A stretch of 64,000 nucleotides of DNA from contig JACPDG010000057.1 in NCBI GenBank assembly GCA_016184125.1, positions 11,485-75,484 on the forward strand. Direction: 5' to 3'. The notes below the pieces were generated by a model. It worked only from the letters and a program-made list of their open reading frames with translations. It was not told the origin of the DNA and did no database searches. A program made the translations under genes and the position numbers. Source of the stretch: Candidatus Rokuibacteriota bacterium (GTDB lineage: Bacteria; Methylomirabilota; Methylomirabilia; Rokubacteriales; CSP1-6). Positions 5,595 to 64,000 of this stretch are shown one piece after another (the first letter of the stretch is position 1; every line of letters starts with the position of its first letter).

Positions 5595-5682
5595 CGTGGC
5601 GTCCCTCGTGTCGGGCGAATCGCGGCGCGTGCGCGCAACTTGCCCATGATACCGCGAGGGCCATGACCGAATCGCGAACCCG

Positions 5683-5780: not shown

Positions 5781-5790
5781 GGCCCGGCGT

Positions 5791-22207: not shown

Positions 22208-23874
<1,667 letters not shown>

Positions 23875-23878
<4 letters not shown>

Positions 23879-24230
23879 CATCACGGGGGGACTATCGATG
23901 CCCCCCAAACCCCCCACGCTCGGAGCGCCCCGGCAAAGCCGTGGCGCTCCTCGACCACCGGATTCCTCCACGGACTCTGACATCATGGGGGGCCCCGACT
24001 TGGCCCCCCAACCCCCCCCACGCTCGGCGGCGGCCCGGGGAACCCGGCCCGCCCCTCGGGAATACGATCCGGCCACGGGCTCTGACATCATGGGGGGACT
24101 ACCGATGCCCCCCAAGCCCCCCGCACTCGGAGCCGTCCCGGGGGGTGCGCGGATGCACCCGTGGGGTGCGCGGACGCACCCGGGGAACCCGGGACGGCCC
24201 TCGACCACCGATGCCGTTCACGGGCTCTGA
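23875..24230. repeat. Tandem array of three GC-hairpin repeat units (R2) between treS and mak
   Basis: Three units, each CTGACATCA(C/T)GGGGGG-loop-CCCCCC-AA(A/G)CCCCCC-(A)CGCTCGG-..-CACGG(G/A)CTCTGAC. The third carries two GGGTGCGCGGA(T/C)GCACCC hairpins. Confidence 0.75.
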
Positions 24231-25623
24231 CGCGCTCGCCGCCTGGATCGCCGCACAGCGGTGGTTCGCCGGCAAGACGCGCCGCATCAGCGGGCTCGTC
24301 GTCGAGGACCGGGTGCCGGTCGCGGACGCGAGCGTCCTCGTGGTCGCGGTCGCGCTCGACGACGCGACCACGCAGCGGTACGCCGTGCCGCTCCGCGACG
24401 GACAGGCCATCGCCGACGCGCTCGACGAGGCGAGTTACGGTCGCGCGCTGCTCGACCTGATCGGGCGGGCCGATCGTGCGGCCGGTGAGTCAGGGGAGAT
24501 CGCCGGGCAGCCGACGCGAGCCTTCCCGCGGGATCTGCCTCCCGCCCCATCGGTGCGGCGGCTCGCCGGCGAGCAGAGCAACACCTCGATCGTGCTCGGC
24601 GAGCGTCTCATGCTGAAGCATTTCCGCCGCCTCGTGCCCGGACGCAATCCCGACGAGGAGATCGGCCGCTTCCTGACGGAGCGGACGTCGTTCACGCACG
24701 TCCCGCGGCTCGCCGGGCACCTCGAGTACCGCCGTGGCGCGGAGCGCTCCACGCTGGCCGTGCTGCACGAGCTCGCGACCGGCGCGGAGGACGGGTGGCG
24801 CTGGGTGCTCGACGAGCTGCGCGCCATGTACTCTGGGGTGGCGCCGGCGGCCGGCGAGCCGGACGACGTCGAGCGGCAGGCCGGTCCGACGCTCGACGCG
24901 CTTCGCCAGCTCGGCGCGGTCACCGCCGAGATGCACCTCGCCCTCGCGGGAGGCGTCGCGGATCCCGCGTTCTCACCGGAGCCGATCACGCCGACCGACG
25001 TGGCCGGCTGGTCGCGCGCCGTCGAGCGCCAGCTCGACGAGGCGTCGGGGGTCCTGGAGTCGAGCGGCGCGGCGGATGAGGCGTCCCGGGGAACGCTCGC
25101 GGTCCTGCGCGGCGAGCGTGCCCTGCTCTCCGCGGGGCTGATGGAGCTCGTGGGGCGCACGAAGATCCGCCACCACGGCGACTATCATCTGGGGCAGACG
25201 CTGTACCGGCCGCGCGAGCGGGAGTGGCTCGTGATCGACTTCGAGGGCGAGCCGCTGCGCCCGCTGGCCGAGCGCCGCGCGAAGCACGCGGCGCTCCGCG
25301 ACGTCGCCGGCATGCTGCGCTCGCTCGACTACGCCGCGGTGACCGCGATGCCGGCCGGCCTGGACGTCTGGGCGCGTGCGTGGGAGCGCGCCGCGTCAGC
25401 CGCGTTCGCCGCCGGGTACCGCGAGCGTGCCGCCGGCGCCCCGTTCCTGCCGGTGTCGCCGACGGCGTTCACGTCGGCGGTGGCCGTGTTCCTCGTGGAG
25501 AAGGCCGCGTACGAGGTCGTGTACGAGGCGGCTCACCGGCCCGCGTGGTTGCCGATCCCGCTCGGCGGGCTCACGCGGGCGCTCGCCGCGCTCACTGGCC
25601 GCCCTCGGGCTGGGGCGGCGTGA
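24211..25623 (+). CDS. mak: Maltokinase (maltose 1-phosphate synthase, Pep2/Mak)
   Basis: The N-terminus (AAWIAAQRWFAGKTRRI) and C-terminus (HGDYHLGQTL..IDFEGEP..RDVAGMLRSLDYAA) align with Mak/Pep2. The ATG start lies inside the terminal part of the upstream repeat unit. Confidence 0.8.
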   Translation: MPFTGSDALAAWIAAQRWFAGKTRRISGLVVEDRVPVADASVLVVAVALDDATTQRYAVPLRDGQAIADALDEASYGRALLDLIGRADRAAGESGEIAGQPTRAFPRDLPPAPSVRRLAGEQSNTSIVLGERLMLKHFRRLVPGRNPDEEIGRFLTERTSFTHVPRLAGHLEYRRGAERSTLAVLHELATGAEDGWRWVLDELRAMYSGVAPAAGEPDDVERQAGPTLDALRQLGAVTAEMHLALAGGVADPAFSPEPITPTDVAGWSRAVERQLDEASGVLESSGAADEASRGTLAVLRGERALLSAGLMELVGRTKIRHHGDYHLGQTLYRPREREWLVIDFEGEPLRPLAERRAKHAALRDVAGMLRSLDYAAVTAMPAGLDVWARAWERAASAAFAAGYRERAAGAPFLPVSPTAFTSAVAVFLVEKAAYEVVYEAAHRPAWLPIPLGGLTRALAALTGRPRAGAA

Positions 25624-33475: not shown

Positions 33476-33560
33476 CCGAGCCGCGCCCCGGGTCCCCCGG
33501 GGCGCGTGCGAGCGACCGGGGGGCTTGGGGGGCATCGATAGTCCCCCCATGATGTCAGTG
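33476..33560. repeat. GC-hairpin repeat copy R3 (reverse orientation), overlapping the YHS gene stop
   Basis: ..CCGGGGGGCTTGGGGGGCATCGATAGTCCCCCCATGATGTCAG. Confidence 0.7.
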
Positions 33561-36383: not shown

Positions 36384-36464
36384 GTGTGCAGGACGCCGGC
36401 GGCGGCTGTCAACACCGCGAAGGTGAGACGGCGGTCCGGCTCACCGGAGGCTCAGCGCCCGTGA

Positions 36465-36835
36465 ACGAATCGCGTGGTCGAGGAGCGCCCCGGCGCTATG
36501 CCTGCCCTCCAGTCCGCCGAGGGGTGTCGAGAGGACCGCCCCGGGGGTTCCCGGGGCGGTTCCGAGCGCGGGGGGGTGTGGGGCATACGCGTTAACGTAA
36601 TATCGGCTTACGATGTGAATCCGCGGGAAACCCACGATTTCCGGGGTCCAGGTCCGCCAAGAGACCCCGAAAAGACGGGCATGGGGGTGTGGGGCGGGGT
36701 GTGGGGGGCCATGTCGGGGCCCCCAGGGACGCAGCGGGAGATCGAGGACCGCCCCGGGTTTCCCGGGGCGGTTCCGAGCGCGGGGGGGTATGGGGGGCCA
36801 TGTCGGGGCCCCCCATGATCAAAAGAGCGATGGCT
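36465..36835. repeat. Cluster of three or more degenerate GC-hairpin repeat units (R4) with an atypical AT-richer core
   Basis: A repeated CCGCCCCGGG(G)TTTCCCGGGGCGGTTCCGAGCGCGGGGGGGT(A/G)TGGGG(GG)CCATGTCGGGGCCCC motif occurs twice. The core between is GCATACGCGTTAACGTAATATCGGCTTACGATGTGAATCC. Confidence 0.65.
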
Positions 36836-38365: not shown

Positions 38366-38549
38366 GCGGCGGCGGCGGGCGGGGTGGAAGGGCGGGTGGA
38401 GGGGGGCGAGCCGAGCCCTTCCGGCGAACTCGGCGAACTGCTATCGCGAAACAGCGGCAGCGAGTGGGAACGCCCCGGCGGTGATCGGTCTCCGACGGCG
38501 GTGGTCGGTCGCCCCCCTCCACCCGCCCCTCCGCCCCGCCCGCCGCCGC
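38366..38549. repeat. MITE-like element: 41-bp imperfect terminal inverted repeats flanking a 100-bp core, between the rng end and the metE-like start
   Basis: Left arm GCGGCGGCGGGCGGGGTGGAAGGGCGGGTGGAGGGGGGCGA. Right arm TCGCCCCCCTCCACCCGCCCCTCCGCCCCGCCCGCCGCCGC, with 2 mismatches to the reverse complement of the left arm. Confidence 0.6.
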
Positions 38550-48900: not shown

Positions 48901-49101
48901 ATGGCACAGGGACGTGTGAAGTGGTTCAACGATGCGAAGGGGTACGGGTTCATCACGCAGGACGGCGGCGAGGACGTGTTCGTCCACTACAGCGCCATCC
49001 AGGCTCAGGGCTTCAAGACGCTGTCCGAGGGTGACCTGGTCGAGTTCGAGGTGACGCGCGGTCCGAAGGGTCTCCAGGCGGCGAACGTCCGCAAGCTCTA
49101 A
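48901..49101 (+). CDS. cspA: Cold-shock protein
   Basis: [28 protein letters not shown]. 66 aa, RNP1/RNP2 motifs, AAGGAG RBS. Confidence 0.9.
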
Positions 49102-49173
49102 GCTCCTGCGTCCCGGCATGCGGCTCCGGATCCACGTCATCTATGGGTCCGGAGCGGCCCACCGTCCGACTCA

Positions 49174-49219
49174 GTTCGAGCCAACAATCGACCGCCGGGC
49201 GGTCGATTGTTGCTCGAAC
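49174..49219. repeat. P1 palindromic element, copy 1 (46 bp near-perfect palindrome)
   Basis: GTTCGAGCCAACAATCGACCGCC-GGG-CGGTCGATTGTTGCTCGAAC. Confidence 0.8.
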
Positions 49220-49224
49220 TCTCA

Positions 49225-49271
49225 GTTCGTAGAAACCATCGGCCGCGAACGCGGCCGATGGTTTCACGAAC
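49225..49271. repeat. P2 palindromic element, copy 1
   Basis: GTTCGTAGAAACCATCGGCCGCG-AA-CGCGGCCGATGGTTTCACGAAC. It lies immediately after P1 copy 1, separated by TCTCA. Confidence 0.8.
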
Positions 49272-49375
49272 TCTCATCCGAGCAGATGACCGAGCCGCGG
49301 GGTCGTCTGTGCCGGAACGTGAACGATCATCCAGCGTGACCGCCGCGGCGACACCGCCAAGCGAGGCAAGAGGAC

Positions 49376-49576
49376 ATGGCACAGGGCATCGTCAAGTGGT
49401 TCAACGACGCGAAGGGCTACGGCTTCATCCAGATCGAGGGGGGCGAGGACGTCTTCGTCCACTACAGCGCGATCCAGGCCTCCGGGTTCCGCACGCTCGC
49501 CGAAGGCGATGTCGTGGAGTTCGAGATGGCGCGGGGCCCGAAGGGACTTCAGGCGTCCAACGTGAAGAAGGTCTGA
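49376..49576 (+). CDS. cspA: Cold-shock protein (second tandem paralog)
   Basis: [34 protein letters not shown]. 66 aa. Confidence 0.9.
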
Positions 49577-49603
49577 CGCGCGATCGCGCGCCGGTCGACT
49601 CGG

Positions 49604-49640
49604 GACGGCCCCCGGATTCCCCGGGGGCCGTCGCATTTCC
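49604..49640 (+). terminator. Rho-independent terminator after csp-2
   Basis: GACGGCCCCCGG-attc-CCGGGGGCCGTC is a 12-bp stem, followed by a short gcATTTcc tract. Confidence 0.55.
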
Positions 49641-50057
49641 GGGAGAGCGGGCAAAAAAGAGCCCCGACGGCTGCTGCGACGCTGCGCGATCCCTCATGGC
49701 GCGTCGCCCCGCGTGGTGAGCGCGGGAACCGTCGGGGCCGGTGGTGCCTGGTTCTCCCAGGCGGCCCACCAGGGACTCGTGTGGACCTTGCCCTAGGAGG
49801 CAACCACCTCACAGATCACCGTAGGGCTACACATCGACTGGATCACCTCCTATTCTCGGCAAGGGCGCCACGCGGGCCCAGGTCCCACTTACCCAGAACC
49901 GGATGCCGACTCCCGGCCCGGGGCCCGGTCACGTTCTGCCACCGGCGTCATTACCGGCGGGGACGCTCGAGGAGCGCTGTTGTCCGCTCCGACCGGTATT
50001 TGATTGCATCCTACACGAGCCCGTGGCGCCGCCAAACGAAAAAGTGGTGAGCGTGCG

Positions 50058-50441
50058 CTACTCGACGACGATCCGTCCGCGATTACGTTCCCAGAGTCCC
50101 GCGCCGATGCCCTGCACGCGCCGGATCTCCTGCGGTTTCTTGAAGACGCCGTGCGTCGTCCGGTACTGGACGATCTTCTCGGCGACCTTGCGGCCGATGC
50201 CGGAGAGCGTCATGAGCTGATCGACGCTCGCCGTGTTGATGTTCACGGGTGCCGAGGCGGCGACCTCGGACTTCGTGTCCGTCACGGCCGTCTTCTCGGT
50301 TCGAGCGACAATCGACCGCCGCGGCGGTCGATTGTCGCTCGAACTCTCCGGCGCGGCGGATGCAGCCGGCGTCAGCAGGAATGGCAAGATCGAGGCAACG
50401 ACGAGGGCGATCGCGAGCGACGAGCGAAGTGCGATGCGCAT
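50058..50441 (-). CDS. comEA: ComEA-like helix-hairpin-helix DNA-binding protein (signal peptide, linker, HhH)
   Basis: Signal MRIALRSSLAIALVVASILPFLLTPAASA, and C-terminal NINTASVDQLMTLSGIGRKVAEKIVQYRTTHGVFKKPQEI. The linker ESSSDNRPPRRSIVART is encoded by a P1 palindrome copy. Confidence 0.7.
   Translation of the reverse strand: MRIALRSSLAIALVVASILPFLLTPAASAAPESSSDNRPPRRSIVARTEKTAVTDTKSEVAASAPVNINTASVDQLMTLSGIGRKVAEKIVQYRTTHGVFKKPQEIRRVQGIGAGLWERNRGRIVVE
50299..50345. repeat. P1 palindromic element, copy 2 (inside the comEA-like ORF, in frame)
   Basis: GTTCGAGCGACAATCGACCGCC-GCGG-CGGTCGATTGTCGCTCGAAC. Confidence 0.8.
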
Positions 50442-50470
50442 AGGGGTTCTCCCGGTGCCGTACGGGCACC

Positions 50471-50635
50471 ATGATCCGTTCACGTCCGAGTTCATCGGGG
50501 GACTATCGATGCCCCCCAAGCCTCCCAACTCGGAGCGCCCCGGGGGGGTGCGCGGACGCACCCGTGGTGCGCGGACGCACCCGCCAAAGCCGTGGCGCTC
50601 CTCGACCACCGAATTCCTTCACGGGCTCCGCGGCG
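50471..50635. repeat. GC-hairpin repeat copy R5 (full, two GGGTGCGCGGACGCACCC-type hairpins)
   Basis: TTCATCGGGGGACTATCGATGCCCCCCAAGCCTCCCAACTCGGAGCGCCCCGG GGGGGTGCGCGGACGCACCC GTGGTGCGCGGACGCACCC GCCAAAGCCGTGGCGCTCCTCGACCACCGAATTCCTTCACGGGCTCCG. Confidence 0.75.
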
Positions 50636-50816
50636 CGCGTCACCGCACGACGGGGCCGGTGACGCGCCCGCGCTTTACCGAACGCTCGCGAGCACGACCA
50701 TTCGACGTCGCGGGTCCGGTGCCGTCAACGTCCAAAGTTGTGGTCACACGCATCCGATACGCTGCCGGCGGGACGTCATCGATGCCCGCGCGACGGTGCC
50801 CGCGCAGGTGGGCCGC

Positions 50817-51122
50817 CTACTCCTCCGCGCGCTCCTCGAGCCGCGCCAGGTACTCGGCCCACTCGACCGGTACGAGGCTCTGCTTGCGTGTGTTGCAGTC
50901 CTTGCAGGACGGCACGACGTTGCCGCGCACCGACGTGCCGCCGCGGCCCAGTGGCACGATGTGGTCCATCGTGAGGGAGGTGGGGCCGACCGACCGGCGG
51001 CAGTAGTAGCAGACGCCGCTCGCGATGCGGCGCTTCCACCAGGCGCTCTTTCTGAGCTCGCGCGCCCGCGCCCGCTCGCGCCTGAGCTCGTCGGGATCGA
51101 TGGGCGCGTAGAACTCAGGCAT
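50817..51122 (-). CDS. HNH endonuclease (small stand-alone)
   Basis: CYYCRRSV..LTMDHIVPLGRGGTSVRGNVVPSCKDCNTRK is the HNH motif. 101 aa. The start overlaps the ABC-F 3' end by 8 nt. Confidence 0.7.
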   Translation of the reverse strand: MPEFYAPIDPDELRRERARARELRKSAWWKRRIASGVCYYCRRSVGPTSLTMDHIVPLGRGGTSVRGNVVPSCKDCNTRKQSLVPVEWAEYLARLEERAEE

Positions 51123-53181
51123 CGTCCGCGAGCGCGCCCGCCAGCTCCTCCCACTCCGACATGAGGCCGGCGAGGTCGCTCTCGGCGCTCTTCCGCTCCG
51201 CGAGCACCGCCCGCGCACGGTCGCCGTCCCGGTACAGCTCGGGCTCGGCCAGCATCCCCGAGATCTCGTCGAGGCGCGCCTCGAGCTCGGTGATGCGCCG
51301 CTCGACGGCGTCGAGCCGGACGCGCAAGCGCCGGACCTCGGCCGCGGATCGCCGCCGCTCGCGTGGCGTAGGACTGCCGTGCGCGCGGCGGGCGTCGGCC
51401 GCGGGCTCTGCGGCGCGCCGGCGCCACGCGACTCCGGTGTCGTCCGTCCCCGCCGGATCCTGCGACGCCGTGTCGGGAGCGGCCAGGCGTGCGCGCGCGT
51501 CGCGGTAGTCGTCGTACGTACCGGGGTACGACGTGAGCCGACCGTCCTCGATCTCCACCACGCGGCTCGCGATGCGGTTGATGAAGTAGCGGTCGTGCGA
51601 GATGAAGACGATCGTGCCTCCGAAATCGGCGAGCGCGTCCTCGAGGACCTCGCGGGACGCGAGGTCGAGATGGTTCGTCGGCTCGTCGAGGGCCAGCAGC
51701 GCGGCGGGGCGCACGAGCATGCGCGCCAGGGCGAGCCGGGCCTTCTCGCCACCCGAGAGCACCGCCACGCGCTTGTCGACGCTGTCGCCCGAGAAGAGGA
51801 AGCTCCCCAGGATCGTCCTGAGACGCGTCCGCCCGAGCTCGGGCGCCGCGCGCTCCATCTCCTCGTAGACGGTCCGCGACGGGTCGAGGGCCTCGAGCTG
51901 GTGCTGCGCGTAGTAGTGGATGGTGACGCCGAGCCCGAGCGTCCGCTCTCCCCGCTCGAACGGCAGCGTGCCGGCGAGCACGCGCAGCAGCGTCGACTTC
52001 CCGGCCCCGTTCGGCCCGACGAGCGCGACCGTCTCGCCGCGCTCGACCTCGAAGTCGACGCCGGCGTACACGACCCGGTCGCCGTACGCCTTGTGGAGCC
52101 CACGCAGCGTGAGGACCCGCCGGCCGGTCCGCGGTGCCTCCGGAAACGCGAAGCGGATCCGCCGCTGGGCCTCCGGCACCTCGACACGCTCCATCCGCTC
52201 GAGCATCTTGAGCCGGCTCTGGACCTGTCTCGCCTTCGTCGCCTTGTAGCGGAAGCGCTCCACGAACCGCTCGATCTCGGCGACGCGCTTCGCCTGGTTC
52301 GCCGCCTGCGCCTCGAGGAGCTGCCGGCGCGTCTCGCGCTCGACCAGGAAATCGTCGTAGTCGCCGGCGTAGACCGAGACGCCGCCCGGACCGAGGTCGG
52401 CGATCGACGTGACCATGCGGTTCAGGAAGTAGCGGTCGTGCGAGACCACGACCACGGTGCCGTCATAGCGCTCGAGAAAACTCTCGAGCCACCCGAGCGA
52501 GTCGAGATCCAGGTGGTTCGTCGGCTCGTCGAGCAACAGCAGCGACGGCCGCAGCAGCAGGAGGCGGGCCAGGGCCGCGCGCATCCGCCACCCGCCCGAG
52601 AACTCGGCCAGCGGGCGCGTCACCTCGGCGGGCGCGAAGCCGAGCCCGCCGAGGATCAGCCGCGCCCCGGTCTCGAGGCGATAGCCGCCGAGCGCGTCGA
52701 AACGCTGCTGCAGCTCTCCGTAGCGGGCGGTGAGCGCCTCGTCGGGGGCGCCGGCCAGGGCGGTGGCGACGACCTCGAGCTCGCGCTCGAGCTGCCACAC
52801 CTCGTCGAACCCGGACAGCGCCTCGCCGAGGACCGTGATCATGGGGGGACCATCGAAGCCCCCCAAGCCCCCCGCGCTCGGAGCGCCCCGGCCAAGCCGT
52901 GGCGCTCCTCGATCACCCGCTTGGTTCACGGGCTCGGTGACGGTGTGCGGCACGGCGCCGCCCGCGTCCTGCGGCAGGTACCCGACCGTCGTGGTTCGCG
53001 GCCGGCTGACCGCCCCGCTGTCCGGCGTCTCCTGCCCCGCCAGGATCCGGCAGAGCGTCGTCTTGCCCACGCCGTTCGGTCCGACGAGCCCGATCCGCTC
53101 GCCGTCGCCGATCCGCCACGAGAGGTCGCGGAAGAGCGTCTGCCCGCCGTAGGTCTTGGAGACGCCGTCGAGCTGGATCAT
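51115..53181 (-). CDS. ABC-F family ATPase (two ABC domains, EttA/Uup-like) carrying an in-frame repeat insertion
   Basis: MIQLDGVSKTYGG, two Walker A sites (GLVGPNGVGKTT; ALVGPNGAGKST), two signatures (FSGGWRMRAALARLL; LSGGEKARLALARML) and a coiled C-terminus. Residues NQAGDRGAPRLGRGAPSAGGLGGFDGPPMITV are encoded by a GC-hairpin repeat copy. Confidence 0.85.
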   Translation of the reverse strand: MIQLDGVSKTYGGQTLFRDLSWRIGDGERIGLVGPNGVGKTTLCRILAGQETPDSGAVSRPRTTTVGYLPQDAGGAVPHTVTEPVNQAGDRGAPRLGRGAPSAGGLGGFDGPPMITVLGEALSGFDEVWQLERELEVVATALAGAPDEALTARYGELQQRFDALGGYRLETGARLILGGLGFAPAEVTRPLAEFSGGWRMRAALARLLLLRPSLLLLDEPTNHLDLDSLGWLESFLERYDGTVVVVSHDRYFLNRMVTSIADLGPGGVSVYAGDYDDFLVERETRRQLLEAQAANQAKRVAEIERFVERFRYKATKARQVQSRLKMLERMERVEVPEAQRRIRFAFPEAPRTGRRVLTLRGLHKAYGDRVVYAGVDFEVERGETVALVGPNGAGKSTLLRVLAGTLPFERGERTLGLGVTIHYYAQHQLEALDPSRTVYEEMERAAPELGRTRLRTILGSFLFSGDSVDKRVAVLSGGEKARLALARMLVRPAALLALDEPTNHLDLASREVLEDALADFGGTIVFISHDRYFINRIASRVVEIEDGRLTSYPGTYDDYRDARARLAAPDTASQDPAGTDDTGVAWRRRAAEPAADARRAHGSPTPRERRRSAAEVRRLRVRLDAVERRITELEARLDEISGMLAEPELYRDGDRARAVLAERKSAESDLAGLMSEWEELAGALADDA
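52836..52941. repeat. GC-hairpin repeat copy R6, inserted in frame within the ABC-F coding sequence
   Basis: GTGATCATGGGGGGACCATCGAAGCCCCCCAAGCCCCCCGCGCTCGGAGCGCCCCGGCCAAGCCGTGGCGCTCCTCGATCACCCGCTTGGTTCACGGGCTCGGTGAC. Confidence 0.75.
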
Positions 53182-53585
53182 CCCATCGTCTGCAGACGCT
53201 CGGGGACGATCTTCACCATCACGCGCACCTCGCCCGGACGCTTCCAGGGATACCGGTCCTGACCGATGTACTTCTTCGCGAGCGCGTCGATGTGCTCGTC
53301 GGCGCCGCGCTCGGTCATCTCGGCGACGCGGCCCTGCACCTGCACGTAGCGGTAGGGGTTGTCGGGATCCTGGATCGACAGCGCGATCCGCGGGTTCTTC
53401 TGGAGATTGCGGTCCTTCACACGGCCGCGCGCGGTGTTGATCCGGATGTGGGTGCCGTCCCAGTCGAGCCACACCGGCGTGACCTGCGGCTGGGCGCCGC
53501 CCGCCGTGGTCGCCAGGTGCGCGAACGCCTTCTTGGTGGTGAACAGATCTCGGAACTCCTCCGGAATCGTCGTCGCCATCGTCAC
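53178..53585 (-). CDS. Pyridoxamine 5'-phosphate oxidase family protein (FMN/F420-binding split barrel)
   Basis: FAHLATTAGGAQPQVTPVWL..IRINTARGRVKDRNLQKNPRIALSI is the PPOX-like pattern. 135 aa. The stop overlaps the ABC-F start (ATGA). Confidence 0.75.
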   Translation of the reverse strand: MTMATTIPEEFRDLFTTKKAFAHLATTAGGAQPQVTPVWLDWDGTHIRINTARGRVKDRNLQKNPRIALSIQDPDNPYRYVQVQGRVAEMTERGADEHIDALAKKYIGQDRYPWKRPGEVRVMVKIVPERLQTMG

Positions 53586-53596
53586 TTCCCTCCTGG

Positions 53597-53712
53597 TCTG
53601 AAATCATGGGGGGACTATCGAAGCCCCCCAAGCCCCCCAATCGCTCGCACGCGCCCCGGGGGACCCGGGGCGCGGCTCGGCTATCGGGTTCGTTCACCGG
53701 CCCTCAGCTGCT
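53597..53712. repeat. GC-hairpin repeat copy R7
   Basis: TCTGAAATCATGGGGGGACTATCGAAGCCCCCCAAGCCCCCCAATCGCTCG..CCCCGGGGGACCCGGGG... Confidence 0.65.
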
Positions 53713-54031
53713 CCAGCACGCTGAACGCGTGGCGTACGGACTTCGCGGAGAGCGATCCGGACATCAGCAGCGCGATGTCGAGCGTCTCGGCGATCTCCTG
53801 GTCGGTCGCCCCCTGGTCGAGGACCTCCTCGACGCGATGGTCCACTCAGTCGAAACAGTTCTGCGAGACCGCGATCGCGAGCGCGGTCAGCTCCTTGTGC
53901 TTCTTCGACAGCGCCCCGTCGGCGTACACCTGCTTGCCGAGCTCGCCGAACGCGGCGAACACCTTCATCGGCGACGTGACGACGAGACCGTTGACGCGGC
54001 GCTTCTCCCGGTTGCGTTCGTGGACGTGCAT
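53681..54031 (-). pseudogene. AhpD/carboxymuconolactone-decarboxylase-family gene interrupted by an in-frame TGA at the CxxC site and a 1-nt frameshift (Sec candidate or pseudogene)
   Basis: N-terminal frame: ..HKELTALAIAVSQNCFD-TGA-VDHRVEEV. A -1 shift then gives LDQGATDQEIAETLDIALLMSG..RAGERTR-stop. Reconstructed, this reads C-F-D-[TGA]-V-D-H with the spacing of AhpD CxxCxxH. The RBS GAGAGGAGA precedes ATG 54031. Confidence 0.5.
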
Positions 54032-54050
54032 GGCTTGCTGTCTCCTCTCG

Positions 54051-54097
54051 GTTCGTGGAAACCATCGGCCGCGAAGGCGGTCGATGGTTTCGCGAAC
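54051..54097. repeat. P2-like palindromic element, copy 2 (hybrid P2 left arm / P1-like right arm)
   Basis: GTTCGTGGAAACCATCGGCCGCG-AA-GGCGGTCGATGGTTTCGCGAAC, followed by TCTCAG. It lies between the 54100..54606 gene end and the AhpD-like gene RBS. Confidence 0.7.
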
Positions 54098-54099
54098 TC

Positions 54100-54606
54100 T
54101 CAGCGGCCCTTCTGCGTGCTCAGCTCCGCCGCCCGCGCCTCGGCCATGCCGCGCAGGGCGAAGAGCACGCGCACGAGGCACTGCTGGACGAGGAGCGCGT
54201 CCTGCGTGAACGGATCGGCCAGCCAATCGCGTGCCCAGCCGGGCTTCTCGCTCGCGAAGCCGAGCGTCGGCGAGAGCGATTGCAGGCGCAGCAGCAGGTC
54301 GTCGGGCGGCAGGCCGCTGGCGCGCAGCCGCGCCACCACCGCCGCCCGCACCGCCGCGTTCCAGACGCCCGTGAGCCCCTCGAGGAGCGCCTGGTAACAG
54401 GTCAGATCGGCCTTCGACTGCAGGTGCTGCAGCACCGCGGGGACGAGCGCGTTGACGGTCGCGTTGCCTTCGTCGTCCTGGCCGAAGAGCGGTCCGATGA
54501 CCGGATCCTTCTCCGGCGCGGGCAGGTGCTCGAGCAGCGCGACGGCCGCGGCGGCCGGGGTCGGCGGGAGCCGGGCGAGTCTCTCGAGCAACGGGACGTC
54601 CGCCAT
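54100..54606 (-). CDS. Hypothetical protein
   Basis: The ATG (MADVPLLERLARLPP..) is preceded by GGAGGGAGG. 168 aa, no recognised domain. Confidence 0.45.
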   Translation of the reverse strand: MADVPLLERLARLPPTPAAAAVALLEHLPAPEKDPVIGPLFGQDDEGNATVNALVPAVLQHLQSKADLTCYQALLEGLTGVWNAAVRAAVVARLRASGLPPDDLLLRLQSLSPTLGFASEKPGWARDWLADPFTQDALLVQQCLVRVLFALRGMAEARAAELSTQKGR

Positions 54607-54607
54607 G

Positions 54608-56080
54608 TCAGCGCCTCCCTCCATCGACGCCCGTGGGTCGCGGGACGCCGATCTCGGCCCCGGCGCGGACACCCGCCCCGGGACGCGCCGGCGCGCCGGA
54701 AGCGCCGCCTCGCGCGAGGTCCTGAGCCCGGCCGCCGGGGACGAGGAACGCCGACGCGAGCGCGACGACGGCGACGCCGAGCCCGACGACGAAGACGCCG
54801 TGCAGCGCATCGCTCATGTCGAGCCCACTCGCGAGCCGGCGTCCCATGACCGCGCCCATGAGCGAGATCCCGATCGCGCCGCCGATCGTCCGGAAGAACT
54901 GCGTCATCGACGTCGCGGTGCCGAGCTCGCTGCGCTCGACGGCGCTCTGGACCGCAATCAGCATCGGCACCATGGTGAGCCCCATGCCGACGCCGCCGAC
55001 GAGCGCGTCGCGCATCGCCGCGGGCAGCGTGAGCGACGGCGACCAGCGCGACAGCAGCACGAAGCCGCCGACCAGACACGCCATGCCCGCGACGACGAGC
55101 CCGCGGTATCCGACGCGGAGGACGAGCCGCGCGCTGACGATCGACATGACCACCCAGCCGAGCACGAACGGGATGAGCACGATGCCGGCACCGGTCGCCG
55201 TCATCCCGCCGACCGCCTGTAGGAAGAGCGGCACGAACTGGATCGCGCCGAACATCGCCATGCCGGCGAGAAACCCCGTCGCCGATGCGGCGAGCACCAT
55301 GCGGTTCGTGAACAGCCTGAGCGGAACGATCGGCTCGGCCGCCCGGCGCTCCACACCGACGAAGCCGGCGAGCGCGGCGAACGCGACGGCCCCGGCGCCG
55401 ACGACGGCAGGTCCTCCGGACGGTTGCGTCCTCGTCGCCTCGAGCGCGAGCAGCAGCGCCGAGACCCCCGTGGTGAACAGCGCGATGCCCGCGTAGTCGA
55501 TGGCCGCCCTCCGCCGCGAGGACCGGTCCTCGCGGAGCGCCGAGACGACGAGCGCGATCGCGATCACGCCGAACGGCAGGTTGATGTAGAACACCCACCG
55601 CCAGGAGACGTGGTCGGTCAGCAGGCCGCCGATGAGCGGCCCGAGCAGCGACGCGATGCCCCACACGCCCGACAGGTAGCCTTGCATGCGGGCGCGGCGC
55701 TCGAGGCCGTAGAGCTCGCCGACGATCGTCATCCCGATCGTCATGAGGCTTCCCGCGCCAAGCCCCTGGATCATGCGGAAGCCGATGAGCTGGCCCATGG
55801 TCTGCGCCGCGCCAGAGAGCGCCGAACCGAGCAGGAACACGATGACCCCGATGACGTAGATCGGCCGGCGACCGTAAAGATCCGACAGCCGGCCCCAGAG
55901 CGGCATCATGACGGTCGCCGTCAGCAGGAAGCCGGATCCGACCCAGGAGTAGATCTCGATCCCGCCGAGGCTCCCGACGGCGTTCGGCATCGCCGTCGCG
56001 ACCACGGTCGACTCCATCGCCGCAAGGAAGATCGTCATCATCACGCCCGCGAGGGCGCGGCCCTTCTTCGTTCCCTCCAT
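54608..56080 (-). CDS. MFS transporter, DHA2 (EmrB/QacA-like, 14 TMS) family
   Basis: GRLSDLYGRRP, the LGPLIGGLLTD motif and 14 predicted TM segments. Length 490 aa. Confidence 0.8.
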   Translation of the reverse strand: MEGTKKGRALAGVMMTIFLAAMESTVVATAMPNAVGSLGGIEIYSWVGSGFLLTATVMMPLWGRLSDLYGRRPIYVIGVIVFLLGSALSGAAQTMGQLIGFRMIQGLGAGSLMTIGMTIVGELYGLERRARMQGYLSGVWGIASLLGPLIGGLLTDHVSWRWVFYINLPFGVIAIALVVSALREDRSSRRRAAIDYAGIALFTTGVSALLLALEATRTQPSGGPAVVGAGAVAFAALAGFVGVERRAAEPIVPLRLFTNRMVLAASATGFLAGMAMFGAIQFVPLFLQAVGGMTATGAGIVLIPFVLGWVVMSIVSARLVLRVGYRGLVVAGMACLVGGFVLLSRWSPSLTLPAAMRDALVGGVGMGLTMVPMLIAVQSAVERSELGTATSMTQFFRTIGGAIGISLMGAVMGRRLASGLDMSDALHGVFVVGLGVAVVALASAFLVPGGRAQDLARGGASGAPARPGAGVRAGAEIGVPRPTGVDGGRR

Positions 56081-56082
56081 CA

Positions 56083-56406
56083 GTGGCCGCCGGTGCACGC
56101 CGCACAGCGGCACAGCGCGCGCAGGTCGGGGTACGCGTAGAGGCTCTCGTGCCCGTCGGACCAGCGCACGCGCACGCCGCGGTCGACGCGCGCGACCTCG
56201 GCCGGCCACGCCATGTCGCGCGTCACGTCCTCGAGCGTCGCGCAGCCGCCGCAGCCGCAATCGCGACGCAAGCGCTCGAACGGATAGATGCTGCCGTGCT
56301 GGTCCGCCCAGTCGACGCCGAGCGCGTAGCGGCCGACGAAGTGCACGTCCTTCGGCACGTCCGGGTCGGGCTGACCGAGGAGCGGCAGCCTCACCTTGCG
56401 GTCCAT
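56083..56406 (-). CDS. DUF971 domain protein
   Basis: 108 aa with a conserved Cys cluster (DCGCGGCA..LCRCAACTGGH), as recalled for DUF971. Confidence 0.6.
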
Positions 56407-56515
56407 GTGTTCATGGGGGGACTATCGAAGCCCCCCAAGCCCCCCGCGCTCGGAAGCGCCCCGGCACAGCCGGGGCGCTCCTCGACAGCCGTTGCGTTCA
56501 CGAACGTTCATCCAG
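56407..56515. repeat. GC-hairpin repeat copy R8, between the alkA stop and the DUF971 start
   Basis: GTGTTCATGGGGGGACTATCGAAGCCCCCCAAGCCCCCCGCGCTCGGAAGCGCCCCGGCACAGCCGGGGCGCTCCTCGACAGCCGTTGCGTTCACGAACGTTCATCC. Confidence 0.7.
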
Positions 56516-57425
56516 CGGTCCCGGCCGGCAGGCCGAGGCGCAGCCCGGCGAGCAGGTAATGGACCGCGAGATTGCGGTAGGGGCCCCACGCGCGCGCCCG
56601 GCGTCTCACGGCGTCCTCGCTCAGGGCACGACCGCGGCCGTCGTAGCGCTCGAACGCGCGCCGCACGCCGAGGTCGCCGGCCGGGCAGACGTCGCCGCGG
56701 CCCAGGCACCGTGCCAGGTACCACTCCGCCGTCCACCGGCCCAGCCCGCGGAGCCCGGTGATCCGATCGACGACGACGTCGTTCGTCGCCGCCGTGAACG
56801 CATCGACGTCGAGCGCGCCGTCGACGACCGCGCGCCCGAGGTCGCGGATGTACTCCGCCTTCCGCGTGGAGAACTTCATCGCGCGCAGCTCGCTCACCCG
56901 GCTCGCGGCCAGGGCCGCGGCGTCGGGGAAGGCGTAGACGCTGTCGCCGTCGACGGCCACCGGCGTGCCGTACCGCGTGACGAGGCGGGCGCGGCACGCG
57001 AAGGCGAACGCCAGGTTCACCTGCTGCGCGGTGATGGAGCCGACGATCATCTCGAGACCATTCGGCGCGAGCGTGGGCCGCATGCCGTGGAGCGGCACGA
57101 CCAGCCCGGCGAGCATCCGGTCGCTCTTCGCGAAGCGGTAGAACCCTTCGAGGTCGAAGCCGAGGCCGAAGATCTTCTCGACCTCGGCACGCACCGCGTC
57201 CTCGACGCGGGACGACCGGGCGCCGGGGACCGTGACGTCGAGCCGCACGTCGTCCACCGGTCCGCGCCAGCGTGCTTCCCAGAGCCAGAGCCGGCCGTCC
57301 AGGCGGAGCACTCGACGGAAGATGCCGTCGCCGACCCGGTTCGCGGGGTCGTCGCCCCAGACGTGGTAGCGCGCCAGTGTCGCCCCGACGTCGAGTGGAC
57401 CGTTCACAGGCAGGACGAATCTCAT
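56508..57425 (-). CDS. alkA: DNA-3-methyladenine glycosylase II (HhH-GPD superfamily)
   Basis: AlkA N-terminal domain plus HhH-GPD (VDRITGLRGLGRWTAEWYLARCLGRGDVCPAGDLGVRRA). Confidence 0.8.
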   Translation of the reverse strand: MRFVLPVNGPLDVGATLARYHVWGDDPANRVGDGIFRRVLRLDGRLWLWEARWRGPVDDVRLDVTVPGARSSRVEDAVRAEVEKIFGLGFDLEGFYRFAKSDRMLAGLVVPLHGMRPTLAPNGLEMIVGSITAQQVNLAFAFACRARLVTRYGTPVAVDGDSVYAFPDAAALAASRVSELRAMKFSTRKAEYIRDLGRAVVDGALDVDAFTAATNDVVVDRITGLRGLGRWTAEWYLARCLGRGDVCPAGDLGVRRAFERYDGRGRALSEDAVRRRARAWGPYRNLAVHYLLAGLRLGLPAGTAG

Positions 57426-57496
57426 CGGGGGATCACGCAGCGGTTCAGTGTACCAGACGTTGTCCGATCGCCCCGAGTCGGCTACCCTGGGGCGCC

Positions 57497-58282
57497 ATGA
57501 CGGCCGTCCTCGACGAGACGCTCGACCACGTCGCCATCCTGACGCTGAACCGGCCGGACACGCTGAACGCGCTCACCCCCGACACGGCGCGCGAGCTCGG
57601 CGAGCACCTCGAGCGCGCCGCGGCGGACCCGGTCGTCCGCGCGGTGGTCGTGACGGGCGCCGGCTCGGCGTTCTCCGCGGGCGGTGACATCCGGTTCCTC
57701 GAAGCGCTCCCGAGCCTGCCGGTCACCGAGCTCGCCGAGGTCGTGTACCGCGCCTTCCAGCGTCCCATCCGCGCGATGCGGAGCATGGAGAAGCCCGTCA
57801 TCGCGGCGGTGAACGGTGCGGCCGTCGGCGCCGGGTGCGAGCTCGCGATCGCGGCGGACTTCAGGATCGCGTCGACCGCCGCGCGGTTCGGCGAGGTCTG
57901 GATCAGGCTCGGGTGCATCCCGGCACTCGGCGGCATGTTCCTGCTGCCGCGGCTCGTGGGGCTCGGGCGGGCGACCGAGATGATCATGACCGGCGAGATC
58001 GTCGAGGCCGAGGAGGCTCGCCGCATCGGTCTGGTCGGCCGCGTCGTCGCGCCGGATGCGCTCCGTGACGCCGCGCTGGACCTCGCGCGCCGGCTGGCGG
58101 CCGGCCCGACGCGCGCGCTCGCCGCCGCGAAGGCCGCGCTCAACCGCGGGCTGTCATCGAACCTGTGGGCCGAGCTCGAGTCGACGGTGCCGCTCCAGCT
58201 CTCCTGCTTCGCGACGCGCGACTTCGCCGAGGGCGTTCGCGCGCTCGCGGAGCGCCGTCCGCCGCGCTTCACCGGCGGCTGA
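57497..58282 (+). CDS. Enoyl-CoA hydratase/isomerase family protein
   Basis: ILTLNRPDTLNAL..VVTGAGSAFSAGGDI..AAVNGAAVGAGCELAIAADFRIA are crotonase-fold motifs. Confidence 0.85.
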   Translation: MTAVLDETLDHVAILTLNRPDTLNALTPDTARELGEHLERAAADPVVRAVVVTGAGSAFSAGGDIRFLEALPSLPVTELAEVVYRAFQRPIRAMRSMEKPVIAAVNGAAVGAGCELAIAADFRIASTAARFGEVWIRLGCIPALGGMFLLPRLVGLGRATEMIMTGEIVEAEEARRIGLVGRVVAPDALRDAALDLARRLAAGPTRALAAAKAALNRGLSSNLWAELESTVPLQLSCFATRDFAEGVRALAERRPPRFTGG

Positions 58283-58285
58283 TCC

Positions 58286-58332
58286 GACGTCATGGGGGGA
58301 CTATCGAAGCCCCCCACGACGTCGGTTCGCGC
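58286..58332. repeat. Minimal GC-hairpin repeat copy R9 (first hairpin module only, flanked by the inverted CCGACGTC/GACGTCGG)
   Basis: CCGACGTCATGGGGGGACTATCGAAGCCCCCCACGACGTCGG. Confidence 0.6.
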
Positions 58333-58341
58333 GCTCTGAGA

Positions 58342-58388
58342 GTTCGAGCAACAATCGACCGCCGCGGCGGTCGGTTGTTGCTCGAACT
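58342..58388. repeat. P1 palindromic element, copy 3 (convergent intergenic region)
   Basis: GTTCGAGCAACAATCGACCGCC-GCGG-CGGTCGGTTGTTGCTCGAAC, preceded by CTCTGAGA. Confidence 0.8.
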
Positions 58389-58406
58389 GAGTCGTCCGTC
58401 TCGACC

Positions 58407-60669: not shown

Positions 60670-60774
60670 GTCGCCCTCCCGCTCGAAGGCTCACGGCGAC
60701 ACACTTCAAGAGCCGTTCCATTGCGCGCGGGCGCGAGGAACTCGCCAGAAAACCGTGGGCTTACACGATCTCGG

Positions 60775-60896
60775 GGCCCTCAGGCCGAGCGGGAAGTCGA
60801 GGAGCGCCGCGGGTTCCCCGCGGCGCTTCCGAGCGCCGGGGGGGGGTGGGGAGGGGGGTGGGGGGCCATCTCGGGGCCCCCCATGAGGTCGGTTCA
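60775..60896. repeat. GC-hairpin repeat copy R10 (reverse orientation), abutting the dnaB stop
   Basis: ..TTCCGAGCGCCGGGGGGGGGTGGGGAGGGGGGTGGGGGGCCATCTCGGGGCCCCCCATGAGGTCGGTTCAG. Confidence 0.65.
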
Positions 60897-63800
60897 GAAC
60901 GGCTGGGAGGCGCGAGCCGGGTCGGCGATGTTCTCGAAGCGCGCGTACTCCGGCAGGAAGACGAGCTTCACGGTCCCGATCGGGCCGTTGCGCTGCTTGC
61001 CGATGATCACCTCGGCGATCTTCTCTTCCTCGGGCGGCACGTCTTCCTTGTACACGCGCGAGCGATAGAGGAAGAGGATCAGGTCCGCGTCCTGCTCGAG
61101 GGCGCCCGAATTGTGACTGACGATACCGTCCGCGAGCCACGACGCAGGACCGGGAACTGTCAAGTCGAAGACGTCCTCCTCACCGTCGGCCGCCACCCGC
61201 ACGACTCGGTCCCAGAAGAGATCGCTCGTTGCCTGCGCCTCGAGCTCCTCGTCGCAGAGAATGTTTGCGTACTCAGCAACGACCGCGCGCGACGGCGCGC
61301 ACCGGAGCTGCGACGTACCCCCGTACGCCGTGCCGCGCAACCCGGCCATCCGTCGCTGCGAGATGCGGCGCTCGCGCATCAGACGCTTCACGCGCTCGAA
61401 CACCTCGCGCGGCAGCGTATCGACGTTCGTGTTCACGTCGCGATCCGCGAGCGCAGCGGCGAGTGCTCGCGCCTGGGGCTCGCGAGGACCGAACGCGCCG
61501 ACGGCGTCGAGAAAACGCCGCTGGTCGGCGCCGCCGGACACTGACACGAAGAAGCTCGTGCGATAGGTTCCCTTCCGGGCCGACGAGATCCTCGCAACGA
61601 TCCCGAGCCTCATCAGCAGCGCGGCGACGTCCGTCGCCAGTCCCGCACTGTTGGTACTGTAGAAGACCGAGTGACTGCCTCGCCCACGCCGAGGAACGAT
61701 AGTGCCATCCGTCGCCCACAGGTGTCGGAGGAGGAGGGCGATCTGCGCGTTCGAGAGGCGGAAGGCATCCTCGGGAACCCGCTTCTCGTGCGAGCGCTGC
61801 CCGAAGATCCCGAGCTGGCGCAGCCATGCGTTCACGCCCCTCGGGTGCCACCGGTCGCCGTTGCCGCTGATGAGCAGCTGATGCCAACCTCGCCGACCAC
61901 GGTACCGCGTGACGTCACACCCGAACTCCTCGCGCGCCGCCTCTGCAACGATGGCGCTGTTCTCTTCGGAGCCCGTCGTGTACCGGAGTGGCTGATGGCT
62001 GAGGGAGCTGCCGTCACCGATGAGCTGGCCGAGGAGCGCAACGCGAGCGTCGGGCCAGGACTCGGGGGACAGCGGCTCCGGGAGATGCCGCGCAAGCGCG
62101 ACGCGGTCGCCTTTGATCAATTCGGTGACCGTCTGCCATCCGCGACCGGTGAAGACCCGGTGCTCGGCCGTCGCCCGGATGGTACGGCCGCTCGCCAGCC
62201 CCACGCGGAAGACCGGTCGTGTCCCGACCTTCCAGATCCGCTCGCTCTTCGCCGCGACGATCTTCCCGGCCGGTGACATGGCGAGCACCTCGGGGGAGGT
62301 GTCCACGAGCTCCCGGATCGGAGCTCGACGTCCGTCGGAAAGCAGCACGACCGTGTCTGCCGTCACGCATTCGCGAAGGTCGGAGAGCTGCGGACGGAAG
62401 TCGCGCTGCGCGCGGCTCTCGACGGCGCGCGACAGCTGCGAGAGGGCCACGACGGGGATGTTGAGCTCCTTCGCGAGGGCCTTCAGGGATCGCGAGATCT
62501 CGGAGATCTCCTGCTGGCGGTTCTCCATCGACGCGCGGCCGCGCATGAGCTGCAGGTAGTCGATGACGACCAGATCCAGCCCGTGCTCGGCCTTCATCCG
62601 CCGCGCCTTCGCGCGCGCCTCGAGCACGGTGATGCCCGGGCTGTCGTCGATGTAGATCTTCGCCTCGCTGAGCCGTCCCGCCGCGGCCGTGAGCCGATGC
62701 CAGTCGGCCGCCGTGAGATAGCCGGTGCGGACGGATTGCGAGTCGACCTTCGCCTCCGAGCACAGCATGCGCTGGACGAGCTGCTGGGACGACATCTCGA
62801 GCGACAGCACGAGCACGCTGGCGTGCAGGTGCACGCCGACGTGCTGCGCGATGTTGAGGGCGAAGGCCGTATTGTGCGTGACCACGTAGTCGCCGGTGAT
62901 GTACGTCCGCGAGGGATGCGTCACCGCGATGCACTGCGCCTCGGACAGGCGCGTCGGCTCGACGGAGACGAAGACCGGCCAGCGCCGCCGGCGAGGCGCC
63001 GAGAGCGGGCGCGCCCGCTTCGACGAGAGCTGGAACATCGTCTTCGGCTCGGAGTGCTGGATGTTGCAGACGTACGCGGGCCTCCCGGCATGCCGCGTCC
63101 CGGCGTGGCTGTATGTGGTGCGCCGGCGGCGGACCGAGCACCACCCGCCCAGGGAGCGGACGAGATCCGCGACATCGCGCGCCAACCGCGCGCTCGTCGA
63201 GCAGAACCGAGCGCTGCCCCAGCGTTCCACCCACCCGTCGGTGTCCATGAGACCGGACAGGAGCGCGAGACGGGCGTCGCGGGAAGCGTTCAGATAGACG
63301 GCGGGGATGAACTTCTCCTCCGAGCGGATGCCCCACAGGCCGAGGCGTCTCAGTGACTCCATGAGCGTGTTCGGGGCAACCCCGGCCACGCCCTTGCGAT
63401 GCGCACCGGCGGCCTGGACGATACGCCAGTCGTCACCGCCCCCGGCGCGAAGCGCGAACGCCGCCGTGGCATGCTCCAGAACGAGCTCGCGGATCTCGGC
63501 GTCGGCCGTCGAGAACATCAGGCTGCTGCCGGAGAGCTTCCCGTCGCCGAGCCGCGCGCCGAGCAGCCAGGGGTCGATCGGGAGCGGCTCGTCGTGGCCG
63601 AAATCGCCCGACGGCGCGTCGATCCAGAGCCGGTGCCGATAGCGCGCTCGGCGGAGCAGCGCGGCGACGCGCTCGGTGGTCAGCACGCGCGGCTCGCGCC
63701 AGCGGCGGTCATGCACCCGCCAGAGATGCTCGGCGGTGCATTCCGTCGATCGGCCGTCGGAGAACGTCACCCGGTGGATCTGCTGCCGCCCCTGCGGGAA

Positions 63801-64000
63801 GATGCCGCTCACGAACGAGGGCCGGCCGTCGATGGAGGCGAGCGCGTCGCCGAGTCGCAGGTCGCCCATGCGCTTCCATCCCGTCACCGTCTTGACGGGC
63901 GCGTCGAGCGGCTGCGCCTTCCCCATGCTCGGGCGGCCCGCGATGATGATGAAGTCCGACGGCTGGAACCCCGACGTCTCCATGTCGAGCTTCTCGAACC
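60894..64000 (-). CDS. dnaB: Replicative DNA helicase DnaB (partial, N-terminus beyond window) containing two inteins
   Basis: Extein pieces are ..[13 protein letters not shown] / [30 protein letters not shown] / [16 protein letters not shown].. (Walker A, H4 motif). They are interrupted by a 349-aa element and a 420-aa element. Confidence 0.9.
61110..62369 (-). other. Class-1 intein with LAGLIDADG homing endonuclease, at the DnaB site before SGAIEQDAD
   Basis: It starts [22 protein letters not shown] and ends [20 protein letters not shown] followed by Ser+1. [10 protein letters not shown] and [12 protein letters not shown] are LAGLIDADG motifs. The end block resembles the Ssp DnaB intein. 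Confidence 0.85.
62871..63917 (-). other. Class-3 intein (Ala1, WCT-type) in the DnaB P-loop, with a LAGLIDADG homing-endonuclease domain
   Basis: Inserted between GRPSMGK and T. It starts with Ala. Block B is [12 protein letters not shown] (T7, H10, W12). Block F carries Cys (AQCIAV). Block G is VVTHN followed by Thr+1. LAGLIDADG-like [10 protein letters not shown] and [12 protein letters not shown] are present. Confidence 0.7.

Follow-up and report, generated by a model that had tools for sequence, protein, structure and literature searches.

An in-frame palindromic repeat in a comEA-like gene of a Rokubacteria genome

The comEA locus and its palindrome

In a 64,000-nt stretch of a metagenome-assembled genome (MAG) of Candidatus Rokuibacteriota bacterium (assembly GCA_016184125.1, contig JACPDG010000057.1, positions 11,485 to 75,484 of the forward strand; the whole stretch is called the window below), we examined a gene for a ComEA-like protein whose coding sequence contains a short palindrome. 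The palindrome is one copy of a repeat family that we call P1, and belongs to the subtype P1a. The window has a G+C content of 70.5%. Along its minus strand lie genes for an MFS transporter, a 168-aa protein, a CMD-like protein, a PNPOx protein, an ABC-F protein, an HNH protein and ComEA, followed by two csp genes on the plus strand, and contigs of related Rokubacteria have the same gene order around comEA. Exact look-up at NCBI identified MBI2217984 (cold-shock protein), MBI2217985 (helix-hairpin-helix (HhH) protein) and MBI2217987 (ABC-F) as products of this locus. The features of comEA and of its palindrome are as follows.

50058..50441, minus strand: ComEA-like coding sequence (CDS), 127 aa plus stop, comprising signal peptide, linker and HhH domain; orthologs start at the equivalent Met
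50346..50441, minus strand: predicted signal peptide MRIALRSSLAIALVVASILPFLLTPAASA, codons 1-32, with predicted cleavage after ASA, then A-P-E32
50070..50252, minus strand: HhH DNA-binding domain, aa 64-124 counted from ATG 50441; Pfam HHH_3 (PF12836), E = 9.2e-21
50298..50345, unstranded: P1a element, 48 nt, with its core at 50299-50344
50346..50348, unstranded: left-hand flanking trinucleotide, CTC on the plus strand and GAG (codon E32) on the coding strand
50295..50297, unstranded: right-hand flanking trinucleotide, CTC on the plus strand and GAG (codon E49) on the coding strand
50295..50345, minus strand: net insertion relative to orthologs, 51 nt or 17 codons (S33-E49, SSSDNRPPRRSIVARTE), from protein and DNA alignments and a translation check

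The core, GTTCGAGCGACAATCGACCGCCGCGGCGGTCGATTGTCGCTCGAAC, is a perfect palindrome of 46 nt, with 23-bp arms and no loop mismatch. A first-pass annotation, made from the letters of the sequence, had placed a 47-nt palindrome at 50299-50345, which is within 1 nt of this core, and had described the open reading frame (ORF) 50058..50609(-) as continuous through it. The frame is indeed open: the element reads E32-SSSDNRPPRRSIVART-E49 and contains no in-frame stop codon. It is located between the hydrophobic N-terminus (..TPAASAAP) and the HHH_3 domain. When up to three mismatches were allowed, a search with the palindrome returned two copies, this one and another at 58343-58386, against 0.00 expected, so the match is not a chance event. 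In the equivalent frame, the second copy (58341-58388) reads ESSSNNRPPRRSVVARTE, in agreement with the earlier statement that another copy would encode a near-identical peptide. G+C contents at the three codon positions of the insert are 0.59/0.71/0.65 and thus reveal no coding bias, as expected for foreign DNA.

Comparison with orthologs, which the first pass had proposed as a check, locates the insertion to the codon. The nearest ortholog, P0001 (JGI, 110 aa), is 86% identical and aligns from end to end save for one 17-residue gap, which corresponds exactly to S33-E49; its contig encodes an ABC-F protein of 654 aa, an HNH protein of 101 aa, ComEA and two CSD proteins. P0001 was compared as a protein, and empty sites at the nucleotide level were taken from two more distant syntenic relatives, L047 and L052. 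The sequence is ...GCG CCC GAG AAG CCT... in L047 and ...GAT GCC GAG AAG ACG... in L052, each with a single GAG, and ...GCG CCG GAG (48 nt) GAG AAG ACG... in the window, so that the one GAG of the empty sites has become two around the element. The single metagenome scan returned only distant ComEA genes, with 40-53% identity (L001-L039). From these alignments we have hardly any doubt that an insertion took place here; it has codon-exact boundaries, preserves the frame and is free of stops.

One might object that the palindrome in comEA arose during assembly of the MAG. De Bruijn assemblies are disturbed by perfect palindromes that exceed the k-mer size, and Logan contigs from this population end at repeats nearby: none of them spans the comEA copy, and the contig that bears the HNH gene ends inside a copy of an unrelated composite repeat (D1) described below. 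However, both flanks of the palindrome are collinear with orthologs, and the junctions are codon-exact and carry the duplicated GAG. Furthermore, Logan assemblies SRR12113418, SRR12113421 and SRR12113426 are 100% identical to window positions 53835-55732, a segment that includes another P1 copy (54050-54098, of subtype P1b); as three independent assemblies reproduce that copy, it is no artefact of MAG assembly. We therefore give an assembly artefact in comEA almost no credence.

The P1 repeat family

A profile search with nhmmer detected exactly five P1-family copies in the window, with E-values from 3e-18 to 8e-17, and nothing else. The four copies other than that in comEA are all intergenic, and two of them form a tandem pair:

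49173..49220, unstranded: P1a copy, 48 nt, CTC-flanked, between the two csp genes
49224..49272, unstranded: P1b copy, 49 nt, in tandem with the copy at 49173..49220, the two having one CTC in common
54050..54098, unstranded: P1b copy, 49 nt, between the stop codon of the gene for the 168-aa protein and the Shine-Dalgarno (SD) sequence of the CMD-like gene
58341..58388, unstranded: P1a copy, 48 nt, GAG-flanked, between convergent enoyl-CoA hydratase and amino-acid permease genes

The two subtypes share the termini (A/G)GTTCG...CGAAC(T/C) and the inner core ATCG(A/G)CCGC. The end pattern of the family can be written (A/G)GTTCGAGC, and P1a copies begin and end with AGTTCGAGC.../...GCTCGAACT. The copy in comEA is the only one of the five that is free of mismatches. 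CTC/GAG stands directly on both sides of all five copies, and these flanks look, from their sequence, like a target-site duplication (TSD). Each of the three P1a copies has 48 nt and adds 51 nt, and each of the two P1b copies has 49 nt and adds 52 nt. We had considered frame neutrality as a rule for the whole family, and rejected it because of the 52 nt added by P1b; it is a property of P1a only.

The tandem P1a-P1b pair separates csp paralogues (48901-49101 and 49376-49576, both on the plus strand) that are 77% identical as DNA. The protein of the first of these genes has identical copies in several related metagenome contigs; that of the second had no record in a contig look-up, and is the sole member of its 90%-identity cluster, in which the NCBI record is the only entry.

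All five copies lie between 49.17 and 58.39 kb (49170-58391), that is, within 9.2 kb or 14.4% of the window, and a scan statistic gives p ~0.002 for this clustering, which suggests local spread or a permissive region. Syntenic loci of 9-20 kb from five relatives (L047-L050 and L054) contain no P1 copy and no long palindromes. L052 has a degenerate P1b-like copy (1298-1344), at the end of its contig and some 40 nt upstream of where comEA starts. As the window has a composite D1 repeat (50481) at about the same distance from the gene, this position, immediately upstream of a conserved hairpin in front of comEA, may be an insertion hotspot.

We also looked for P1 in a wider set of sequences. A scan for the P1a core in one genome per species (185,579 species) produced seven single hairpins in unrelated phyla; all seven lack the outer arms and are thus chance occurrences, so P1a is absent from the species representatives and belongs to a narrow lineage only. 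A search for P1-encoded segments in proteins, with a concatenate of three frames, found no match at E <= 10, and an exhaustive search with the 81-aa ORF that runs across the tandem copies found only two spurious repeat proteins. Nor did a profile built from the composite repeat's peptide have any match, but it also missed a known positive (P0121), so these peptide negatives, for P1 and the composite repeat alike, are weak evidence.

Translation start and product of comEA

What the insertion means for the protein depends on where translation of comEA begins. Four features bear on this question:

50449..50453, minus strand: Shine-Dalgarno sequence GGGAG, 7 nt upstream of ATG 50441; duplex with the anti-SD sequence of -7.4 kcal/mol; position kept in L047 and L052
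50454..50470, minus strand: hairpin GGTGCC-cgtac-GGCACC in the 5′ untranslated region (UTR), directly upstream of the SD sequence; conserved in L047 and L052
50481..50640, unstranded: copy of the composite G6/C6-hairpin repeat (D1/D2), unrelated to P1, inserted upstream of the comEA 5′ UTR
50283..50285, minus strand: start codon annotated by NCBI, GTG (V53), 10 nt downstream of the insertion, giving the 75-aa protein MBI2217985.1 without signal peptide

The first-pass annotation had let the gene begin too far upstream, at 50609. In that long ORF, codons 1-56 (50442-50609) are read from the composite repeat, and the presence of this copy at 50481-50640 makes the N-terminal extension spurious. 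In keeping with an insertion here, the spacer between the HNH gene and comEA measures 375 nt in the window, compared with about 200-224 nt in L047 and on the contig of P0001. All close comEA homologs begin with the Met that corresponds to ATG 50441, and the real CDS is therefore most likely 50058..50441 (127 aa) rather than 50058..50609. G+C at third codon positions (GC3) is 0.81-1.0 in the comEA frame; it is 0.81 in codons 1-32, and this codon-position signal supports coding in that part. The upstream signals are intact. The stem of the UTR hairpin is GGTGCC..GGCACC in L052 and GGCGCC..GGCGCC in L047, where both sides of the stem have changed, and the hairpin may be a regulatory or stabilising element. 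Between 49 and 51 kb we found no sigma-70-like promoter and no intrinsic terminator or T-run.

The N-terminus of the 127-aa form, MRIALRSS-LAIALVVASILPFLLTPAASA, is laid out like a Sec signal peptide, with charged, hydrophobic and A-x-A parts: R2 and R6 are in the n-region, the hydrophobic core spans residues 7-25 with a hydropathy peak over 6-25, and the A-S-A motif comes after it. This assessment was heuristic, from hydropathy, AlphaFold2 and homologs. Residues 1-32 are identical to those of P0001 at 27 positions. AlphaFold2 places a helix at residues 5-22 and gives the HhH domain a confidence (pLDDT) above 90, whereas most of residues 23-59 remain below 50; the linker between signal peptide and HhH domain is thus predicted to be disordered, and it varies in length and sequence across homologs. 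In addition to HHH_3, the protein matches the Pfam family HHH (PF00633, E = 5e-10), and its matches in the Protein Data Bank are of the ComEA type (8dfk, 1.4e-9; 8dss; 2duy). The homologs that we inspected are about 100-125 aa long and consist of a signal peptide, a short variable linker and the HhH domain. The protein thus resembles the periplasmic ComEA/ComE receptors of Gram-negative bacteria (HHH_3; represented by the same three structures), which have a signal peptide, a short linker and one HhH domain of about 60 aa, and it would be about 100-110 aa long without the insert. Unlike those receptors, it has a 17-aa extension at the mature N-terminus that is encoded by a repeat. That the palindrome is within a coding linker between signal peptide and HhH domain, as the first pass had it, is supported by the clean 17-codon gap of the syntenic ortholog, by the layout that the homologs share and by the conserved UTR hairpin, SD sequence and ATG.

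We propose the following course of events. [quoted passage not shown] With 48 + 3 nt, the net gain is 51 nt in a frame without stops, and comEA stays open. The ancestral ATG 50441 most likely remains the start of translation, which would yield a pre-protein of 127 aa. Its mature N-terminus would have gained 17 hydrophilic residues (SSSDNRPPRRSIVARTE), within a linker that had been variable and disordered before. We think it likely that this full pre-protein is the product; a peptide such as APESSSDNRPPR would be in keeping with it. With its HhH domain intact, the protein probably still binds DNA, and it is probably still exported.

The annotated protein at NCBI suggests a different outcome, namely that the insertion crippled comEA. 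Either the 75-aa form starting at GTG 50285 would be the only product, or the gene would be a young pseudogene whose upstream codons are intact for lack of time. MBI2217985.1 indeed starts past the palindrome. The perfection of the palindrome speaks for a recent event, the mRNA would contain a very stable hairpin, extra arginines have been placed near the cleavage site, and there is no second genome with the insertion. However, the insertion is a multiple of three and free of stops, and the duplex of the GTG with the anti-SD sequence is poor (-3.0 kcal/mol versus -7.4 kcal/mol at ATG 50441), whereas the ancestral ATG keeps its SD sequence and the conserved UTR hairpin. A cytoplasmic protein of 75 aa would be the shortest among the 120 homologs listed, and a hydrophobic N-terminus is present in all of the roughly 30 homolog sequences inspected. 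Moreover, gene callers commonly avoid strong repeats and palindromes, so the annotation says little by itself. The first pass had itself raised the scenario of a start past the palindrome, which would leave the repeat untranslated; the NCBI annotation follows that scenario, but the weak SD sequence and the resulting status as sole family member without a signal peptide argue against it. We judge the 75-aa form to be an annotation artefact, and consider it unlikely that comEA was crippled, although this is the main alternative to our reading.

The RNA of the element forms a 21-bp perfect stem, and a region of 86 nt around it folds at -51.7 kcal/mol (z = -5.6). Such a structure could have been co-opted as a regulatory RNA, for instance as an RNase III or processing site, as a pause after the signal-peptide codons or as a protein-binding site, and kept for that function. 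The strength of the stem and the fact that this copy alone among the five is without mismatches would fit such a role, and hairpins of the REP type have been proposed as RNA elements (PMC3733652). On the other hand, the insertion is missing in every relative examined and no conservation points to selection, identical elements occupy ordinary intergenic positions, there is no terminator-like T-run, and no Rfam family matches the window at gathering thresholds. Co-option of the hairpin thus appears very improbable.

The same hairpin, together with the two GAG codons, is also reminiscent of translational bypassing. In bypass inserts such as those of T4 gene 60 and of Magnusiomyces mitochondria (PMC5009743), a short hairpin insert likewise stands between matching codons, here GAG E32 and GAG E49, and bypassing of short inserted blocks is documented there. 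If ribosomes hopped from GAG to GAG over the element, they would restore the ancestral ...APEKTA... protein, and the element would be absent from the product; the stable 48-nt hairpin even starts directly after the would-be take-off codon. However, bypass inserts break the frame or carry a stop, so that bypassing is required, whereas the P1a insert is in frame and stop-free and can simply be translated. The codon after take-off is AGU, an ordinary Ser codon and neither a stop nor an unused codon; the locus has no known nascent-peptide signal; and efficient bypassing is extremely rare in bacteria. We regard hopping as extremely improbable.

Several observations nonetheless weigh against our proposal that a mobile P1a element inserted into comEA and is now translated as part of an exported protein. 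As the same trinucleotide is found at every copy, the CTC flanks could be conserved ends of the element or a target preference instead of a TSD. A Pfam scan of about 55 ORFs in the window found no transposase, no REP-associated tyrosine transposase (RAYT) and no parent insertion sequence with matching ends. The NCBI pipeline chose the start downstream of the palindrome. The 21-bp perfect stem could reduce translation or draw cleavage of the RNase III type. Over the first 18 residues of the mature protein, the net charge is +2, compared with about 0 to +1 in relatives, and in E. coli added positive charge near the cleavage site can lower Sec export. Finally, the insertion occurs in one genome only and its palindrome has no mismatch yet, which leaves no time for purifying selection on the upstream codons to have become visible. 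We believe that the insertion is probably recent and neutral to mildly harmful, with the mild harm expected from the mRNA hairpin and the added positive charge near the cleavage site. We do not think that it is adaptive.

Relation to known elements and other repeats of the window

Rickettsia is well known for palindromic repeats that lie in frame within genes, and REPs inside genes as well as in-frame MITE fusions have been described in several species (PMC10969869; PMC3733652). According to what these two articles summarise of Ogata et al. (2000, 2002), the Rickettsia palindromic elements (RPEs) are, like P1a, repeated palindromic selfish elements that are found in frame in coding genes and add a peptide to a host protein thought to remain functional. 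In the same summaries, RPEs are about 100-150 bp long, often intragenic, and found in AT-rich, obligate intracellular alphaproteobacteria. In contrast, P1a is 48 bp long, GC-rich and flanked by CTC/GAG, has one intragenic copy among the five of its family, occurs in a Rokubacteria MAG of free-living type, and has no sequence relationship to RPEs. We therefore rejected P1 as a member of the RPE family on the basis of size (48 nt), host and sequence; the two are alike in behaviour only.

P1 also shares properties with REPs and bacterial interspersed mosaic elements (Di Nocera et al. 2013, PMC3733652). These are short palindromes mostly between unidirectional or convergent genes, with two subtypes side by side, stable RNA hairpins and an occasional intragenic copy, and the mostly extragenic and in part paired occurrence of P1 (four of five copies intergenic, one tandem pair) follows this pattern. 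However, REPs are defined by a conserved tetranucleotide, GTAG or CGTC, at one palindrome end (PMC3733652), and P1 has neither at its termini; GTAG is found only internally, in one P1b copy. This led us to reject P1 as a REP. Further differences are its greater length, the perfect palindrome of the comEA copy, the 3-nt direct repeats that bound the copies and the lack of a RAYT gene in the window.

A third comparison is with bacterial MITEs such as Correia/NEMIS and ERIC (PMC10969869), which have terminal inverted repeats and TSD-like flanks, occur in several copies, differ between lineages and can form in-frame fusions. In P1 we find inverted-repeat ends (23-bp arms), a flanking duplication with corresponding empty sites (L047, L052 and P0001), five copies and a lineage difference. 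P1 differs from MITEs in that its 48 nt comprise inverted repeats only, at or below the usual MITE size, and in that no parent insertion sequence is known. The literature that we searched contains no description of repeat families in Rokubacteria.

The parallel with RPEs raises the question of whether P1a is a coding-compatible repeat that targets Glu codons and has repeatedly built new disordered segments in this Rokubacteria lineage. Being palindromic, it encodes the same peptides whichever way round it is inserted, and five of its six frames are open. On the other hand, a single intragenic copy is known, and P1b, which adds 52 nt, is not frame-neutral. We consider such a general role improbable.

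The comEA insertion has a neighbour of a different kind. The gene for the ABC-F protein (51115..53181, minus strand; 688 aa, MBI2217987.1) contains an in-frame insertion of 34 aa, EPVNQAGDRGAPRLGRGAPSAGGLGGFDGPPMIT (52834-52935, minus strand), which stems from the composite D1/D2 repeat. The L047 ortholog, which is 77% identical, lacks this insertion, and syntenic ABC-F orthologs are 34-40 aa shorter (648-659 aa); NCBI annotates the full-length form. Repeats of two kinds are therefore found in frame in coding regions here. The first-pass annotation had called comEA the second case in the window of a repeat tolerated inside a coding region. Its first case is confirmed by the ABC-F insert, and the in-frame position of the second by the comparisons above; that the repeat in comEA is tolerated, in the sense that the protein is made, exported and functional, is what we infer from these comparisons.

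The composite repeat forms an abundant family of G6...C6 hairpins (GGGGGGACTATCGAWGCCCCCC) and GC-rich stems, mostly at gene boundaries. Its sites in the window are 5652-5782, 23870-24260, 33476-33560, 36452-36824, 50481-50640, 52828-52935, 53593-53680, 56400-56507, 58279-58334 and 60763-60892. One of its reading frames yields a recurrent peptide, GGLGG(F/I)DSPPM, and with it long spurious ORF extensions. The repeat is not found in the syntenic loci of relatives.

Two other repeats were observed in the window. A 21-nt unit, CGGCCGCGCCCGAGGGGCGCG, is present in five head-to-tail copies at 18844-18950, at the start of a plus-strand ORF (about 18851-20188) that has no Pfam match; if read in frame, these copies would encode a heptapeptide repeat. 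A 41-nt inverted repeat (38369-38409 and 38509-38549), rich in runs of G or C, is 95% complementary and has its arms 99 nt apart, between methionine synthase-like and RNase G genes. As to other genes, a glycogen/trehalose/alpha-glucan cluster at 6.7-25.6 kb, with GH13, GH57, GlgC-like, TreT-like, GlgE-like and maltokinase-like genes, represents ordinary chromosomal context without mobile-element genes. On the minus strand at 60897-63998, a gene for a replicative helicase of the DnaB type is split by an intein with a LAGLIDADG homing endonuclease (Pfam Intein_splicing and LAGLIDADG_3); its ORF extends beyond the end of the window.

The insertion of a palindrome in frame into comEA is an event of a kind that has been seen in other bacteria before; taken alone, it is a new and instructive but unsurprising example. 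Its immediate consequence is a correction of annotation: where the public record has a 75-aa protein without signal peptide, comparative evidence points to a secreted protein of 127 aa with a repeat-encoded insert. In addition, two unrelated repeat families have recently invaded this Rokubacteria genome, and the neighbouring comEA and ABC-F genes both have in-frame repeat insertions. So far, discussion of palindromic elements in frame has mainly concerned Rickettsia and a few other groups. If it were true that many in-frame copies exist across the genome, protein evolution driven by selfish DNA would extend to a soil lineage with large genomes and high G+C content.

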